Virus record (IMG/VR): IMGVR_UViG_3300029267_000809
Coordinates: 1-42,928 of that record
Length of the DNA stretch: 42,928 nucleotides
DNA from: a virus
Taxonomy: Duplodnaviria > Caudoviricetes
Direction: 5' to 3' (one strand)
Positions 217 through 33,448 of the stretch are shown here, in pieces. Made by a program: the position numbers and the translations under genes. The notes beneath the pieces are model-generated. The model saw only the letters and a program-made list of their open reading frames with translations. It searched no databases and was not told where the DNA came from. The first letter of the stretch is position 1; each line of letters begins with the position of its first letter.

Positions 217-3075
217 ATGGCTGTTTTACTCGACAAATATGAACCTTCTGGACCGGGAACCTCCAAAAAGGTCAGAAAGCGGAAAAGTAGGGCTAAATCC
301 TCAACCACAGCCCCCGGTGGAGCAATCAAGAACAAAACAGGTGGTAAGCCTGGACGAAAACCAGGGGGAAAGAAAACCCCTGTTGAAGATCCTGATGCAG
401 ATACCAAACCACCACCCAACAAAGCCCTTTTCTCTGTTTCTTCCAGAAAGGGAAAGGGAACCGTACAAAAACGCACTACTTCCAAGAGGGTAGTCAAGAA
501 GGAAGGAACCTACACCACTAAGAAGAAGACACCCACTCCCAAAAAGAAAGCCACTGGTGTTTCCTCTCCAAAGAAGACGGTCAGAAAGAAATCAACTACT
601 GGAACTGGACAAACCACCAAGACCAAAAAGAAAGCGGTAGTCACCTCCCAAAAGAAAACCACGGTTGATCTCACACCAAAACTTACAGCTAAGAAGGTTG
701 GTAGATCCCGTAAGAACACTGGTGAAGATCAGGCATACACCGCAGAACGTCGAGAACATGGATTGCGGGGTATCCGTGCTGCCAACCGATCAGTAAGGGA
801 TATCTTCCCCATCGACTTCACAGGGATCAATTGGGAACGTCGCCTATCCTGCAAGTACGATCTCCAAAAGTTTGGGGACACCTATCTCAATCAGATCTTC
901 TACCTGCCACCCTCTGACGACCACATGGAATGCTGTGACCGAATGCAGACAGTCTTCCTTGAAGGTGGTATGTTTGCACTTGCCATGCCTCGCGGTCAAG
1001 GGAAAACGGCATGGTGTCGAGCATCTATGATCTGGGGAACTGCCTATGCCCACAAAACCTTCCCCTTCTTTGTTGGCTCGATGAAAGACAAGGCGACCCA
1101 AACACTTGAAGCAGTCAAGATGTTTTGGTATCAGTCTCCCGATCTACGACAAGACTTCCCAGAAATAGCAGTACCGATTGTTGCCCTGGAAAATAGATGG
1201 CACTTGGCACAAGGACAACTCTACAACGGCAACCCCACACACATCGAATGGGGAAGTGACACTATCCGCTATCCCTCCCTCTTACTCGATGATGACATTA
1301 TTGAACTCTTCGAGAAAGAAGATCCCGACTACCTCCGATACGTTCCCCACCTCGACCGTAAGGTAGTCAAGTCCTCTGGTATTCTCATCAGAACCAGCGG
1401 TATTGACGGTAGTATCCGTGGTGAAGCAGACGTACACCCTCTTACCCTGGAACAACCAAGACCAGACGTTGTACTCTTGGACGACATCCAAAAGGACCAA
1501 AAGGCGGAATCACCCACAAGTTGTGAAAAGATTGTGAGACTCATTGACGGTGCTATTGCCGGTCTAGCAGGACCGGACAAGATGATCTCTTGCATCATGC
1601 CCTGCACAGTCATTCGAGAGGATGATGTATCCGATACCTACCTCGATCCAGACAAGAAACCGGAATGGAATGGTAAACGCTGCTCAATGGTCACCAGTTG
1701 GCCCGAAGGAATGGACGACTACATTATCGACATCGAATCGGTAACAGGAGGGCATTGGATCAGATACCAGGAACTTCGCAAACAATCACTCAGACAATTC
1801 AAGGACATCCGATTAGCAACGGAATACTACAAGGATAACCAGGAAGTCATGGACGATGGATTCGTCTGCTCCTGGGATCAACGCTACAACAAAGATCCCA
1901 AACTCAAAGGGAACATCGAGATCTCGGCACAGCAGAACGCGATGAACAAGCGATTCACCGCACCTGCCACCTTCCCTGCCGAATTCCAGAACAATCCAAA
2001 GAACCTCGATGAAAACCAACTGATCCTGTTAACTCCCGCCCAAGTTGCAGAAAGGACTATCGCAGTCCCCCGATCAGTTCCACCCATCGATGCCACCAAG
2101 ATTGTCTGTCACATCGACGTTCAGAATGAAGTCTTGTTCTACACCCTCTTTGCTTTCAAAAACGACTACACAGGTGTCTTCATCGAGTACGACACCTTTC
2201 CCAGCTACAGAACACGCTACTTCTCAAAATCCATGACACAAGGCTGGATGGGACTCTCAAGGCTATTCTTTGAGGATTACCCCCAACACAGGAACCTTGG
2301 AGAACGACACAACAACGGTAAACTCGCAGCACCCCTTGAGGCCAAGATCTACCATGCCCTGGACAAACTAACTACCCAACTTCTTTCCAGAAAGTTCACG
2401 AAGCAGGACCAACACCAATCCTTCCTGATGATTAACAAGATCGGGATTGATACCCAATGGGGTAAGACCAATGACGTAATCAGAAGATTCATTCGAGAGA
2501 AAGGAGATCCACGAATCATACCGATGCACGGTGAGGGTATCGGACCACATCAAAAGCAGTATGAGGAATACAACCCCACCAAGGGTTGGTTATTCGAGCA
2601 TCAGTTACACCCCAATGTGGAAGAGTCCAAGTGGTTAACCAAACCAAACAATGATGGACTCACACACATGGCAATGGATGTCAACCGCTTAAAATCATTC
2701 CTCTTCGTTCGTCTTGCTTCACCGGCAGGAACATCGGGAGCAATCTATCTCCATGAGGGAGATCCAGCAAGACACGAAATGTTTGCCGATCATGTTGCCG
2801 GATCAGAAGAACCTGAAATCGATTACCGCAAAGGAAGACAAGGTTATCGATCTAAGGAACTATGGGTACACAAGGAAACCAGACCAGACAATGACTATCT
2901 CGATAACTGTGTCGGTTGTCTTGCACTGGCATCCCTGGAAGGTGCAACACTCCGTACACCGGAATCAATGGATAAGCCGATAGCACCACCAGCACCCAAA
3001 CGCAAACTTTCAGACATTTACGCAGCAAAACAGGAAGCACGGCGATCCCGTCGTCAACCAGTCAGACCGATGTAA
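217..3075 (+). CDS. terL: phage terminase large subunit (GpA-like) with ~170 aa Lys-rich N-terminal extension
   Basis: Walker A MPRGQGKT, Walker B VVLLDDIQ, C-terminal nuclease motifs (HIDVQ, GIDTQW, DNDYLD); upstream of head genes. Confidence 0.9.
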   Translation: MAVLLDKYEPSGPGTSKKVRKRKSRAKSSTTAPGGAIKNKTGGKPGRKPGGKKTPVEDPDADTKPPPNKALFSVSSRKGKGTVQKRTTSKRVVKKEGTYTTKKKTPTPKKKATGVSSPKKTVRKKSTTGTGQTTKTKKKAVVTSQKKTTVDLTPKLTAKKVGRSRKNTGEDQAYTAERREHGLRGIRAANRSVRDIFPIDFTGINWERRLSCKYDLQKFGDTYLNQIFYLPPSDDHMECCDRMQTVFLEGGMFALAMPRGQGKTAWCRASMIWGTAYAHKTFPFFVGSMKDKATQTLEAVKMFWYQSPDLRQDFPEIAVPIVALENRWHLAQGQLYNGNPTHIEWGSDTIRYPSLLLDDDIIELFEKEDPDYLRYVPHLDRKVVKSSGILIRTSGIDGSIRGEADVHPLTLEQPRPDVVLLDDIQKDQKAESPTSCEKIVRLIDGAIAGLAGPDKMISCIMPCTVIREDDVSDTYLDPDKKPEWNGKRCSMVTSWPEGMDDYIIDIESVTGGHWIRYQELRKQSLRQFKDIRLATEYYKDNQEVMDDGFVCSWDQRYNKDPKLKGNIEISAQQNAMNKRFTAPATFPAEFQNNPKNLDENQLILLTPAQVAERTIAVPRSVPPIDATKIVCHIDVQNEVLFYTLFAFKNDYTGVFIEYDTFPSYRTRYFSKSMTQGWMGLSRLFFEDYPQHRNLGERHNNGKLAAPLEAKIYHALDKLTTQLLSRKFTKQDQHQSFLMINKIGIDTQWGKTNDVIRRFIREKGDPRIIPMHGEGIGPHQKQYEEYNPTKGWLFEHQLHPNVEESKWLTKPNNDGLTHMAMDVNRLKSFLFVRLASPAGTSGAIYLHEGDPARHEMFADHVAGSEEPEIDYRKGRQGYRSKELWVHKETRPDNDYLDNCVGCLALASLEGATLRTPESMDKPIAPPAPKRKLSDIYAAKQEARRSRRQPVRPM

Positions 3076-24719: not shown

Positions 24720-25278
24720 TTATTGTATTAGTGTGGATGAAAAACGGTGGGATAGATTTAGATCAGACATCCCAACCGACTGGCCCTTTTCTTATCCAGA
24801 GAGAATGGGAATCCACTACAGGGATCTTAAAATACCTGAGTGGTGGGGAGGAAAACCAAAACACTATGGGAACATGATGTCCCACTTTCAGGTTATTAAC
24901 AGAGCACTCGATGAAGGTCACGACTACATAGCTCTCTTTGAGGATGATGCAGTACCAATGGGTTACCTCTCTATTGGTTGGGACAGGGTGAAAGATTTAT
25001 CTTTTGATTTCCTCTGGATGGGTGGACAGTGGATGAGTGGCAGACCACGACCAGAAGGAATTATTACAGGGCTTCGTCATAAGATTATCCGTTCCCATGC
25101 TCTTTGTTTGTCTCGCAAAGCGATGGAGTTAATTCGTGAATTCCTAATGCCGGATAAGAAAGTTACCTGGGCACTAGACAATCACTACTACCAACTCAAG
25201 AACAGACTCCCTCTTGGCATGTACGCTTGTACTCCCTTCCTTTTCAAACTCCCAAACCAACACCATTCCCAATTATAA
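24697..25278 (+). CDS. glycosyltransferase family 25-like protein
   Basis: YCIS....RW..F, GNMMSH, IALFEDDA, FLWMGG, SHALCL motifs; ATG 24697. Confidence 0.7.
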   Translation: MSVLSPVSYCISVDEKRWDRFRSDIPTDWPFSYPERMGIHYRDLKIPEWWGGKPKHYGNMMSHFQVINRALDEGHDYIALFEDDAVPMGYLSIGWDRVKDLSFDFLWMGGQWMSGRPRPEGIITGLRHKIIRSHALCLSRKAMELIREFLMPDKKVTWALDNHYYQLKNRLPLGMYACTPFLFKLPNQHHSQL

Positions 25279-25295
25279 ACGCAAAGATCCCAACT

Positions 25296-25943
25296 ATGAC
25301 CCCATTCGATATCCAACGCTGTTATGTGGTAAATCTCACACGACGCACAGACCGCCTAGAATCGTTTCTAAGAGCACTTCCAGTTCCTTGGATGCTTCCT
25401 TCGATTCAAGTGTTTGAGGCGATTGACGGGGATCTGGTGCAACCTCCTGGGTGGTGGCATCACAAGGCTTGTCGTCAAGGTGCTTGGGGATGCTACAGAT
25501 CTCACTTGACCGTGCTGGAACAATGTCTGAACGAAGGGATCGAACGAGTCATCATCTTTGAAGACGACATCACATTGAAGGATAATTTCAACCAAAGAAT
25601 AGTGGAATTCCTTGAAGACCTACCCGAAGACACTGAAATGTTTTACCTGGGAGGTCACCACCATCATGTTCCACCAAAACCTGTAAGCAAAACAATAGAT
25701 CGAGTCACCTTCACACTCGGAACCTACGCTTATGGTTTTTCTTCCAGAGAAGGAATTGAGAAAGCATACAAACATCTGAATGAAGCACACCTGTATGAGA
25801 ATCATCACATCGATTGGCAGTATGCTCAGTTTGCCCACCGTGTCAATGTGTATTGTCCTGTTGATTGGCTAGTCCAACATGAGGGGGGCTATAGCGATGT
25901 AGCTAATAGTTATCGTGCCCCCCTCGTACAGAAAATCGGGTGA
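25296..25943 (+). CDS. glycosyltransferase family 25 protein
   Basis: YVVNLTRRTDRL, FEAIDG, GAWGCYRSH, IIFEDD, FYLGG, GYSDV; ATG 25296. Confidence 0.88.
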   Translation: MTPFDIQRCYVVNLTRRTDRLESFLRALPVPWMLPSIQVFEAIDGDLVQPPGWWHHKACRQGAWGCYRSHLTVLEQCLNEGIERVIIFEDDITLKDNFNQRIVEFLEDLPEDTEMFYLGGHHHHVPPKPVSKTIDRVTFTLGTYAYGFSSREGIEKAYKHLNEAHLYENHHIDWQYAQFAHRVNVYCPVDWLVQHEGGYSDVANSYRAPLVQKIG

Positions 25944-25996
25944 GCCCTCTCCACCCGGTGGTGGGTACAGGGAAGGGATGCCCTGTGTCTACCAAA

Positions 25997-26152
25997 CTAG
26001 TAAGGACGACCACAACGATCACAGATGTACCCACAGTGTTGACAATACTTGTCATTGTGGTCATGGCTATAAGGAACCCATCGCTTCTCTTGGTATCTGT
26101 TAACGTACCAATCACAAAGATCACGAAGTTTACGAACGAATCGAATAAGCAT
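25997..26152 (-). CDS. 51 aa zinc-finger peptide (not in ORF track)
   Basis: MLIRFVRKLRDLCDWYVNRYQEKRWVPYSHDHNDKYCQHCGYICDRCGRPY; GGAG RBS; two CxxC. Confidence 0.65.
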   Translation of the reverse strand: MLIRFVRKLRDLCDWYVNRYQEKRWVPYSHDHNDKYCQHCGYICDRCGRPY

Positions 26153-26183
26153 TGTAGTTACTCCATAAGTTAAAGGAAAAAAT

Positions 26184-26365
26184 CTCAGTGTCCCATCGCA
26201 GGTTGCTTTGATTGCTCCGGTTAGAACATTCTACCCATCTGGATTAGTGGGTTACCATCCCACACAACTTTCTTCATCCAGGTTGCACGACTTCTTACAC
26301 CTTTGCCGGATCTACGGTATACCGAGAATAGGTATCCTCCACGACAGGGTTGCAGGGACACTGAG
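26184..26365 (-). ncRNA. putative ~180 nt structured RNA of unknown family
   Basis: 11 bp closing helix CUCAGUGUCCC/GGGACACUGAG followed by U-rich tail; internal helices CUGGAU/AUCCAG, GUGGG/CCCAC, UCCGG/CCGGA. Confidence 0.5.
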
Positions 26366-26374
26366 TTATAAAAT

Positions 26375-26414
26375 CCCCTGCCGATCTATGCGTTGCTCGT
26401 AAGACCGACAGGGG
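26375..26414 (-). other. 13 bp RNA hairpin (terminator-like or part of the ncRNA)
   Basis: CCCCUGUCGGUCU/AGAUCGGCAGGGG pairs fully only on the minus strand (two G-U pairs); followed by AUUUUAU. Confidence 0.7.
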
Positions 26415-26428
26415 TAAACGAAGGGAAG

Positions 26429-26564
26429 GGGCAAGGGTGGTATCTCAAGGACGTATGACCGGGAACTCAGTGTCGGATTCTACCCGATTGGCTGTCTGAC
26501 TCCCTCTTAGAGCGAAGAAGGCATCCCGTTTGCTCACATACTCCCACCTATCCTGCACAAGCCC
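26429..26564 (-). ncRNA. 23S rRNA L1-stalk (H76-H78)-like RNA with expanded H78
   Basis: UGUGCAGGAUAGGUGGGAG ... CCUUGAGAUACCACCCUU, closed by GGGC/GCCC; near-identical to the conserved bacterial L1-stalk strands, no other rRNA sequence nearby. Confidence 0.8.
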
Positions 26565-26584
26565 ACGACCAGGAGCGACCTGTT

Positions 26585-26857
26585 TTACCTCCGTTTCTTT
26601 TTTGAACTTCGCGGTTGTTTCCGACCAGTCTCAACCTCATTCATTTCCCGCCGGAAAATCCCCCTAGCAATCGCTCTGACAGTCTCATCCCTTCGGCGGG
26701 AAATGTTCCTGCACTGACGATTAAAGCTACCAGGACCAACCTGTAGGGCTAGTGGAATGCTTCCACTCCCACCAAACCCAAGAGTACCAAAAGTCTCCCA
26801 TTGCTGTGAGAACTTGACTTTGCCCTTTGCATCCGTATTGAGAATTACATTATCCAT
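26585..26857 (-). CDS. basic hypothetical protein
   Basis: ATG 26857 (MDNVILN...) with GGAGG upstream. Confidence 0.55.
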   Translation of the reverse strand: MDNVILNTDAKGKVKFSQQWETFGTLGFGGSGSIPLALQVGPGSFNRQCRNISRRRDETVRAIARGIFRREMNEVETGRKQPRSSKKKRR

Positions 26858-26954
26858 CTTTATCAACCTCCACCATGAAATAGATCCAAAGAATTACAAC
26901 ACCGAGAATGCCACCTAAAAATCCAGCAACAAAAGGTACGATTATCTCTTGCAT
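26850..26954 (-). CDS. 34 aa membrane peptide (not in ORF track)
   Basis: MQEIIVPFVAGFLGGILGVVILWIYFMVEVDKDG; GGGAG RBS; overlaps both neighbours. Confidence 0.6.
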   Translation of the reverse strand: MQEIIVPFVAGFLGGILGVVILWIYFMVEVDKDG

Positions 26955-27187
26955 GATTCTCCCTTTCTGATCTCCATCGACCAACCAAGTTCCATAAGGA
27001 TCAGTTCAAGACGCTGGTGAGTCTGATCGATTTCACCCTCAATCAAAATCACATTCTGTGCTCTCTGTTGAAACTGATACACCTGTCCGGTAGCTGGAAC
27101 TACCCAGATCCCATCTTCCTTCAAGCTAGCAATAAGTGCCACAACAAAATTGATATGTCCCTGTGTAGGTGTCCAACTAGCTACCAT
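26942..27187 (-). CDS. hypothetical protein
   Basis: 81 aa ORF, AGGGG RBS, coupled to upstream gene. Confidence 0.65.
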   Translation of the reverse strand: MVASWTPTQGHINFVVALIASLKEDGIWVVPATGQVYQFQQRAQNVILIEGEIDQTHQRLELILMELGWSMEIRKGESCKR

Positions 27188-27866
27188 CTGATTCCCCTTG
27201 AAATGTTAAACCATAATGATTGAGGACTTCAAAATCATCCCGATAGAACTCTTCAATCCCATCACGGATATCATCGTCAAAGAATGATGCAACAGGCCAA
27301 GTCCGACCTTCCATATCAAACAGGTTACACCCTTTGATATCTGCTGGGATACCATCAAAATCTAAATCGTACATATACGCAGACAATCCATCCCGATCAT
27401 AGTGAATTTTATGATCGAAGACAACATCTTTTGAACCAGCAAGCATTCCCGACTGTTGTGGTAACTCCACAAGCTGCCACTTCTGAGGTGAGAAGTTTTC
27501 AGTCTGTGGTTGAAAATGGTGCTTCCAAGAATACTTCGACCCAACAATCACAGGTAACTTTTCAACGAACTCACGGAAAGTAACGTCGATCTTTTCACCT
27601 TTCTTTTTGTTTGGGGCCAAGACGTAAATGTTGAGGTAACCCGAAAGACAACGAGTATAGGGATTCCGAACAAACCACCAATACTTCCCGGCATTCTCAG
27701 GACAAGTTTGGTAGGTAGTAGCCTGTATCCAAACATTGTGATGGACCTTGTTAAGATCCTCTGGTATGGGGAAACGATTTTGAAACAACCAACTCAACTT
27801 GACTGCGGTACAACCGCACTTGGGTGACCATGCCCAACACTGACCATTGTGTGCTAAGTAGTGCAT
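27177..27866 (-). CDS. sulfotransferase family 2 (Sulfotransfer_2-like) protein
   Basis: PAPS-binding motifs PKCGCT and FVRNPYTR.LSGY; HFQPQ; C-terminal Y.DDF....Y. Confidence 0.8.
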   Translation of the reverse strand: MHYLAHNGQCWAWSPKCGCTAVKLSWLFQNRFPIPEDLNKVHHNVWIQATTYQTCPENAGKYWWFVRNPYTRCLSGYLNIYVLAPNKKKGEKIDVTFREFVEKLPVIVGSKYSWKHHFQPQTENFSPQKWQLVELPQQSGMLAGSKDVVFDHKIHYDRDGLSAYMYDLDFDGIPADIKGCNLFDMEGRTWPVASFFDDDIRDGIEEFYRDDFEVLNHYGLTFQGESDGS

Positions 27867-32410: not shown

Positions 32411-33448
32411 ATGGGAATAAACGTACTGTCTTTATTTGACGGAATGAGTTGCGGACAGATTGCTCTCGATAAATTAGGGATTGAAGTAGATAACTACTTT
32501 GCTTCTGAAATTGACAAGTATGCAATGCAAGTAACTAAACACAATTACCCAAATACAAAGCATATAGGCGATGTAACACAAGTAAAAGGTTCAGACTTGC
32601 CAAAGATTGATTTATTGATAGGTGGAAGCCCTTGCCAAGGATTCAGCTTTGCAGGGAAGCAATTAAATTTTGACGACCCAAGAAGCAAACTGTTCTTTGA
32701 ATTTGTTAGATTGTTAGAAGAAACAAAGCCTAAATACTTCTTGCTTGAAAACGTAAAAATGAAAAAGGACTACCAAGATATTATAACCGAATATTTAGGT
32801 GTAGAGCCGATAGTTATCAATTCAAATTTAGTTTCGGCACAAAATAGAACGAGATATTATTGGACTAACATAACAAATATTGAGCAACCGAAAGACAAAG
32901 GTTTGTTACTAAAAGATATTACCGAAGAAGGATTGCAAAGTTTAGGGCTGGCACAAAGAGGAAGGTATGATAAAAAAGGTAAGGTGGTGCAGAAATACGA
33001 ATTAAACGGAACGGAAAAAAGCAATGCTATAACAACAGTTTCAAAAGATACTTTGCTATTTATACCCGTTGACAAACACTCTTCAAACTCTGGATTAGTT
33101 TGCTTGGGTGGTGTAATGAAACCAACACATAAACTTTGGCTCGATAATGGGAAACTGTTGCAACGCAATTTTTCACAAGGGAATAGGGTTTATTCAAGCG
33201 AAGGTAAATCTGCAACATTAAACGCTAATAGCGGTGGTATTGGTGGGAAAACAGGGTTATACGAGATTGAGGGTGTTATTAGAAAACTAACAAGGTTAGA
33301 ATGTGAAAGATTGCAAACTGTACCTGATGGATACACTTCTGTTGTAAGTGATACACAAGCAATAAAAATGCTTGGAAATGGATGGACAGTAGATGTAGTA
33401 GATGTTATTGCACACATTTTCAAAGGCTTGCTTAATGAAAATCTATAA
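32411..33448 (+). CDS. DNA (cytosine-5) methyltransferase
   Basis: Motif I LSLFDGMSCG, IV GGSPCQGFS, VI LLENV, VIII QNRTR, X LGNGW. Confidence 0.95.
   Translation: MGINVLSLFDGMSCGQIALDKLGIEVDNYFASEIDKYAMQVTKHNYPNTKHIGDVTQVKGSDLPKIDLLIGGSPCQGFSFAGKQLNFDDPRSKLFFEFVRLLEETKPKYFLLENVKMKKDYQDIITEYLGVEPIVINSNLVSAQNRTRYYWTNITNIEQPKDKGLLLKDITEEGLQSLGLAQRGRYDKKGKVVQKYELNGTEKSNAITTVSKDTLLFIPVDKHSSNSGLVCLGGVMKPTHKLWLDNGKLLQRNFSQGNRVYSSEGKSATLNANSGGIGGKTGLYEIEGVIRKLTRLECERLQTVPDGYTSVVSDTQAIKMLGNGWTVDVVDVIAHIFKGLLNENL

Follow-up and report, generated by a model that had tools for sequence, protein, structure and literature searches.

A free-standing copy of the 23S rRNA L1-stalk head in an uncultured tailed phage, its relatives in other viruses and a possible role in uL1 capture

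The stretch of DNA analysed here (the window, 42,928 nucleotides at its full length) comes from an uncultured tailed phage, in which we found genes for the terminase, the portal, a protease-capsid protein and the tape-measure protein, together with a DNA methyltransferase at 32411-33448 on the plus strand. No close relatives of this phage were found in the collections searched, either through the 93-aa ORF described below or through a tail-region protein, and the best relatives of the portal are merely 24-25% identical to it. The RNA region that concerns us is flanked by genes for a glycosyltransferase-like protein (25227-25943, plus strand) and a sulfotransferase-family protein (27177-27866, minus strand). 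Upstream of the element, a leftward run of genes is closed by an ORF of 93 aa with a basic C-terminus (26585..26866, minus strand), and the element starts about 20 nt past its stop codon. This ORF has no PHROG or Pfam match; a search with it returned only its own record, and the viral contigs held no relatives. None of the window proteins scanned belongs to a ribosomal protein family, the element adjoins no ribosomal protein gene, and there are no tRNA genes in the 42.9 kb of the window, which may be incomplete. A promoter scan of the window gave no signal above chance.

The next ORF on the same strand starts about 285 nt downstream of the element, behind two other structures on the minus strand. 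Directly after the element lies a strong hairpin followed by a short U run (26376..26414, z -4.8), a possible 3' boundary that a consensus terminator scan did not call. Beyond it is a second structured element of about 180 nt with a long closing helix and then a U run (26184..26365, z -3.0 to -3.2). This second element has no Rfam match and no real match in INPHARED phages or in the 17 records that carry relatives of the stalk element, and is possibly another non-coding RNA, separate from the stalk copy.

Two segments of the minus strand, 26559-26541 and 26451-26433, correspond to conserved strands of the bacterial L1 stalk. Against the 23S gene of Salmonella (L004) they are identical at 19/19 and 18/19 positions, and the figures of 18/19 and 17/18 given in the original prediction were reproduced against the enterobacterial 23S sequence in record L031. 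Allowing any position in the 23S, the chance expectation for such a pair of strands is at most about 1e-8, a rough value that assumes uniform base composition. The absence of flanking rRNA, which had also been claimed, was borne out: nothing else near the element matches the 619-nt piece of 23S in L004, BLAST of the masked 600-nt flanks against a 2380-nt 23S reference gives no match, and the far 5' flank has an identity of 0.19 to 19 rRNAs. It had been expected that Rfam would report a partial large-subunit match. No such match appeared: across the whole window nothing reached the gathering score, LSU_rRNA_bacteria included, and positions 25900-27100 gave only four sub-threshold chance matches. 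As had been proposed, then, no named Rfam family covers the element, given the lack of any match at gathering score in the window. At the level of sequence, these matches identify the element as an L1-stalk head with no other rRNA attached.

The E. coli 23S position numbers that we place on the window are labels that agree with the stalk positions quoted in PMC5309774 and PMC3602588. All of the following features lie on the minus strand. In the predicted fold the element opens with the 5' strand of a short H76-like helix (26558..26564), whose 3' strand is at 26429..26435; the helix consists of one pair, two U-U mismatches and four pairs, and as a duplex of 1+4 pairs it has p 0.2 against shuffles. 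Loop A, the first T-loop (26549..26557), is recognised by identity to 23S and has G at position 2112 (26556) and C at 2113 (26555). It is followed by the 5' strand of H77 with the GA after it, the core uL1 site (26542..26548, identical to 23S), and by the 5' strand of the H78 base, GTATG (26537..26541). The latter pairs in the constrained fold with CATAC (26453..26457), so that the H78-base helix after G2127 has five pairs, and between these strands lies an expanded H78 arm of 79 nt (26458..26536). Loop B, the second T-loop (26441..26452), again recognised by identity to 23S, has A at 2169 (26445) and G at 2170 (26444), and the 3' strand of H77 follows (26436..26440; identity to 23S and pairing across the family). 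The window thus holds the five-pair H77 helix and the conserved sequence of both loops, and G26556 and A26445 occupy the positions of the G2112-A2169 platform. In the ribosome this platform receives the tRNA elbow (PMC5309774), while the protein uL1 holds region 2120-2127 in a clamp and extends into the pocket between H76 and H78 (PMC3602588).

We searched for other copies with a two-strand pattern. Over IMG/VR, four gap ranges gave 3, 4, 0 and 23 matches; 22 of these 30 are free-standing, four are true rRNA (L012, L014, L017 and L031), two are doubtful contig ends (L009 and L029) and two are chance matches (L001 and L018). A strict pattern with a gap of 75-105 had no viral matches, and the empty one of the four ranges was the gap of 101-131. 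Rfam showed no LSU match among the 22 free-standing IMG/VR copies. A metagenome scan (gap 72-102) yielded 46 matches, comprising 16 free-standing copies, 18 true large-subunit rRNAs (17 recognised when their flanks were run through BLAST, and L041 by eye) and 12 classed as chance; L058 is identical to the window and is therefore not an independent copy. A genome scan (gap 70-100) yielded 13, of which one is a true 23S, seven are chance and five are free-standing-like copies in small-genome bacterial assemblies (L088, L090, L093, L095 and L097), with L095 a borderline member at 26 bits. In total, the pattern scans provided 43 free-standing records, which flank similarity sorts into 26 groups. 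With our model R1 the window shows one copy, as does each of 17/17 carrier records. The window, itself a training member, scores 67.7 bits with R1, within the 41.7-94.5 bits that the training rows reach by construction; of eight chance loci, five have no score at all and none exceeds 28 bits. The terminase of the window matched none of the 17 carrier records, most of which are fragments.

Among cultured phages, blastn against INPHARED found only records annotated as 23S, short unannotated records that we take for host rRNA contamination, and chance matches. We rejected Paenibacillus phage Pd_22F (MZ092003.1, L098) as a carrier because it holds a full 23S and a 5S gene; these (L098 357-3462) are annotated as hypothetical proteins and are likely host sequence in the assembly. 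Two of the free-standing viral loci lie no more than about 1 kb from a ribozyme, a pistol ribozyme for L023 (3062-3130) and an HDV-like ribozyme for L030 (1117-1187). We also saw short eukaryote-like stalk copies in RNA-virus records: L016 (788-823, plus strand), L025 and L021 (273-315, plus strand). These precede the main ORF, in an RNA-helicase record (L016, L025) and in a mitovirus-type polymerase record (L021), and they lack most of H78, as the eukaryotic stalk does. PMC5309774 describes the eukaryotic L1 stalk as having no H78, and PMC13712778 reports that several viral IRESs require uL1 (RPL10A). In a Buchananbacteria assembly (L057 2001-2102, L070 and L090), a T-arm motif lies 50 nt upstream of the element, and in L057 the ribosomal protein L10 gene is found about 650 nt upstream of it.

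The original prediction had listed a set of stems for the window element, and these fared unequally. The stems GTATG/CATAC, CGGGA/TCCCG and GGGC/GCCC appear in the constrained fold; the three extra hairpins of the H78 arm also appear, but without statistical support. The arm can be drawn as a stem with two hairpin branches, and it is variable and likely dispensable. Taken as 89 nt, it folds at -22.6 kcal/mol against -22.8 for shuffled sequence (z 0.06; 153/300 shuffles as good), and because it is no more stable than shuffles we regard the extra hairpins as possible yet unsupported, and not as a mark of the family. The element as a whole folds worse than shuffles (z +1.1 to +2.2), where two true 23S stalks reach z of about -3 and the values for three other mimics lie between -0.1 and -0.6. 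Given this fold and its weak H76, the window copy may be a weakened member of the family.

Comparison across copies speaks to the same arm. The gap between the two strands ranges from 14 to 100 nt over the family, and the shortest H78 is a tiny hairpin. In L002 (2001-2122) and L013 (2001-2060) the flanks are 97-98% identical, while the gaps are 100 and 38 nt; the arms are wholly different, which means that the arm has been exchanged or quickly rebuilt. The H78 insert of the window matches neither inserts nor flanks of other loci. We rejected a tRNA origin for it, since Rfam and tRNA scans show nothing tRNA-like, and ARAGORN at a lowered threshold made eight scattered calls, none of them in the element. 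A long H78 is also present in 17 of the 18 true rRNAs from the metagenome scan. In ten true 23S genes (L034, L037, L040, L044, L047, L051, L061, L065, L068 and L073) H78 is lengthened to 74-102 nt, in several of them by repeat-like inverted sequence, and variable H78 length in CPR rRNAs is described in 10.1101/2024.11.29.625318. The expanded H78 had been put forward as a defining or functional trait, and this view is not supported: the length varies freely, the hairpins are unsupported and true rRNAs have arms just as long. The long arm of the window is likely a tolerated, neutral expansion. The family keeps the H78 base, which shapes the uL1 pocket, and leaves distal H78 free to vary.

For covariation we used an alignment (A1) of 28 distinct copies, whose rows were picked by eye before counting and some of which are related, a choice that can inflate counts. 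When the rRNA-derived structure was imposed on these copies, 80.4% of cells were paired, against 66.0% in shuffled alignments (0/500 as high) and 43-56% when the structure was slid along. The covariation score was 0.406, against 0.174 in shuffles (again 0/500). Both sides had changed in 8/8 pairs of H76, which is 67% paired family-wide, and in 3/4 pairs of the H78 base, which is 82.7% paired across the 28 copies with 14 double changes at its second pair. H77 is 100% paired in the 28 copies, partly by construction of the search pattern; since both H77 and loop B were in that pattern, their conservation is not independent evidence. Positions 2114 and 2115 were outside the pattern, and they are A and G in 26/28 copies. 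Purines stand at both 2112 and 2169 in 24/28.

Between the loops, covariation is seen at 2113 and 2170, which we take from comparative rRNA maps to touch in the fold. In the 23/28 copies with C or T at 2113, the states are C-G in 8, C-A in 1, T-A in 14 and T-G in none (p 1.8e-5, or 1.6e-4 with five close relatives dropped), and this pair of columns ranks among the top two of 77 loop-to-loop pairs. The window has C-G, so its two mismatches to the E. coli type amount to one compensated change. Among 21 true rRNAs the same pair is T-A in 11 and C-G in 5, and the covariation may be partly inherited from different donors. Compensating changes are thus present in H76, in the H78 base and at 2113/2170. 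The likeness to rRNA also has a sharp edge. Loop A of the 28 copies has an identity of 0.58 to 19 rRNAs, about what rRNAs have to each other (0.57), and in the far 5' flank the identity of copies to rRNAs is 0.23 against 0.61 between rRNAs.

The free-standing copies are a family kept by selection. The homologues in other viruses, and the compensating pairs that the original prediction had called for across them, were both found. Its further claim that the element is selected, and is neither a decayed scrap nor a misassembly, is upheld by this covarying family and by the sharp edge to rRNA likeness. It could still be argued that the copy in the window is a functionless relic, or an assembly chimera with host rRNA. 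Its weak fold and short H76 would fit a relic; no close phage relative was found, so purifying selection on this copy is not measurable; and true rRNA chimeras do exist in viral collections (L012, L014, L017, L031 and L098). A chimera should not leave two separate short matches with their stems re-paired on either side of an insert that is not rRNA, however, and the window has the tail and scaffold of a subfamily (below), the compensated state at 2113/2170 and an R1 score, as a training member, far above those of the chance loci. We therefore judge a relic or chimera to be extremely unlikely.

The scaffold in question surrounds the stalk on both sides. P0, a predicted closing helix, has its 5' strand at 26588..26596, where the last codons of the 93-aa ORF overlap it, and forms nine pairs with 26416-26424 both in the constrained fold and in a free fold of 26410-26600. 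P1, a predicted hairpin of four pairs with a 5-nt loop, precedes H76 at 26570..26582; a hairpin at this place recurs in seven related loci, with differing sequence. After H76, a pyrimidine tail at 26416..26428 holds the 3' strand of P0, all on the minus strand. Such a tail is common to a subfamily made up of the window, L002, L010, L013, L026, L038, L049 and L067, and when we searched for loop B followed by the tail, 7/7 viral matches fell at stalk loci already found. Members share an order in which a purine run, hairpin P1 and H76 are closely spaced, with the purine run able to serve as a pairing partner for the tail. We accordingly predict a P0-P1-H76 three-way junction, a model built on folds and on reading by eye, without pair counts; the alignment of the upstream arm (A2) was excluded from the counts. 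In L010 (about 1960-2061, minus strand) and L026 (about 2061-2110, plus strand) the tail pairs either with the upstream P0 or with a purine-rich stretch immediately downstream that resembles a Shine-Dalgarno sequence. The choice between two partners hints that these members may contain a switch.

The two partners of the tail in L010 and L026 are also what one would look for if the element acted in cis, that is, if uL1 bound to the mRNA stabilised the P0-P1-H76 junction and so controlled a neighbouring gene or protected the transcript end. It would then be a counterpart of the L11-L1 operator at rRNA grade. In L005, L010 and L055 an ORF starts 36-45 nt downstream, two RNA viruses carry the copy ahead of the main ORF, and P0 of the window overlaps the end of the upstream ORF. 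The distance of about 285 nt to the next same-strand ORF in the window, with two structures between, sits poorly with such control. Across loci, moreover, the neighbouring proteins have no family in common, and copies in tRNA clusters often have no ORF to regulate. Finally, in L002 and L013 the element is followed, as judged by eye, by consensus promoter-like sequence before the downstream tRNAs. We consider action in cis improbable.

Another feature of the context is the presence of tRNA genes, which occur in 15/15 of the DNA-virus carrier records searched, with 1 to 49 in each. They occur in 0/5 control records taken from chance or rRNA matches, a set that is small and not matched for size. 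Stalk copies lie within tRNA clusters in L003/L054 and L008/L011/L027, and that of L003 lies directly between two tRNA genes. In the cellular copies L057, L090 and L093, and also in L035, a T-arm motif lies 50-60 nt upstream of the element. The window is the exception to this linkage as far as its sequence reaches, and has no T-arm motif near the element, either downstream or within the 150 nt tested upstream.

This linkage raises the possibility that the RNA is mainly a dock for the tRNA elbow, with the T-loops stacking on the G19-C56 corner of tRNAs from phage or host and aiding the processing, folding or protection of these tRNAs, with or without uL1, much as T-box stem I or the RNase P specificity domain contacts tRNA. 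The purine-purine platform in 24/28 copies and the T-arm motif before cellular copies are in keeping with such a role, as is the description of the interdigitated T-loop motif as a portable elbow binder in PMC4810234. The 42.9 kb of the window, possibly an incomplete record, contain no tRNA gene; several carriers have kilobases between the copy and the closest tRNA gene listed, and the linkage is measured against a tiny control set. The RNAs known to bind the elbow also grip their tRNA at a second anchor point. None is evident in the element, and on the ribosome uL1 shares in the elbow contact (PMC5309774 and PMC3602588). We hold a mainly tRNA-docking role to be unlikely, though it comes second to uL1 capture.

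The element keeps the region that uL1 contacts, together with its pocket. According to PMC1920258 and PMC10931766, an 80-nt fragment of 23S retains uL1 binding, the sites are interchangeable between species, and binding to mRNA is an order of magnitude weaker. Because the contacted region and pocket are kept and a fragment of that size binds, we place uL1 capture first. Our reading, drawn from sequence and to our minds just on the probable side, is that the element is a copy of the L1-stalk head kept by selection, likely transcribed and predicted to take the stalk fold, which likely captures host uL1 off the ribosome. The partner would be the host protein, since a uL1 gene (PF00687) was found in 0/18 carrier records searched, L021 being left out. 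Counting against uL1 capture, no uL1 gene was seen in three Saccharibacteria assemblies that carry a similar element, though these assemblies are incomplete. The features that support uL1 capture also fit tRNA docking, and the tRNA linkage of the family is strong.

The mechanism that we propose for uL1 capture runs as follows. Transcription of the leftward gene run would extend through the element at its 3' end, and processing would perhaps release an RNA between P0 and the downstream hairpin. This RNA would fold into the H76-H77-H78 head with two presumably interlocked T-loops, and the folded head would bind host uL1. Since the affinity of uL1 for a full site of the rRNA type is about ten times that for the mRNA operator, this RNA would win uL1 from the L11-L1 operator of the host; it would serve as a sponge for uL1 and could release the L11-L1 operon from repression. 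The resulting particle of uL1 and RNA would also present the tRNA-elbow surface formed by G2112 and A2169.

A stalk copy could also serve as a decoy for some other host factor that recognises the stalk; nucleases directed against phages, modification enzymes and translation factors that bind at the E site are examples. Conservation of the whole head, instead of an operator-like core alone, would suit a decoy, as would the single copy in 17/17 records and the spread over many viruses. We know of no defence protein that targets H76-H78, and our literature searches, in the texts accessible to them, found none. uL1 would also be expected to cover much of the stalk surface. A decoy role therefore seems to us very improbable.

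Among known RNAs, the closest to the element is the stalk of bacterial 23S itself (H76-H78; RF02541), which it matches in sequence and pairing at H77, both loops, G2112-A2169 and the H78 base. Unlike the 23S stalk, the element has no H75, H79 or other rRNA, is encoded by a phage between genes, is missed by the Rfam LSU model, and has a short H76 that sits in a predicted P0-P1-H76 junction of another order. It resembles the operator of the rplK-rplA (L11-L1) operon in being a free-standing mimic of the 23S uL1 site (PMC10931766). That operator, a stem-loop of irregular shape that contains an internal bulge, lies ahead of rplK or rplA and binds uL1 more weakly, whereas the element keeps the full head and both T-loops and is not in an rplK/rplA leader. 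With T-box stem I and the specificity domain of RNase P, the element shares the predicted elbow-binding motif (PMC4810234). Their versions are convergent and unlike 23S in sequence, while the element is a literal copy of the rRNA version, and it has no specifier loop, antiterminator or catalytic domain, as the lack of an Rfam match indicates. GOLLD and ROOL are large structured non-coding RNAs linked with phages and tRNA genes, and their function is not known. They are far larger, have Rfam models of their own and have no match in the window.

The full-text literature that we could search holds no description of such an RNA, though subscription papers and supplementary motif lists may contain one. 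For example, the terms rRNA, stalk, T-loop and 23S are all absent from the main text of the paper that reports 224 motifs (PMC5737381). The stalk-copy RNA is thus apparently undescribed. The window contributes the long form of H78, the subfamily with the three-way junction, the covariation of 2113 with 2170 and an example of a carrier that has no tRNA gene as far as its sequence is known.

For the family at large we tentatively suggest, as a possibility somewhat short of probable, that bacterial and eukaryotic viruses have repeatedly cut a ribosome-free L1 stalk from host rRNA, which would form an E-site-like particle with uL1, drain uL1 and dock tRNA elbows. The rRNA mimics known so far are short operators that act in cis, within mRNAs for the ribosomal proteins of the host itself. 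If our interpretation is true, viruses that keep a full L1-stalk head as a free module would control translation by a new route, and these RNAs would be without precedent as a viral class derived from a functional centre of the ribosome. They would also provide natural variants with which to ask what the stalk head and uL1 do off the ribosome, and whether an isolated double T-loop holds tRNA.
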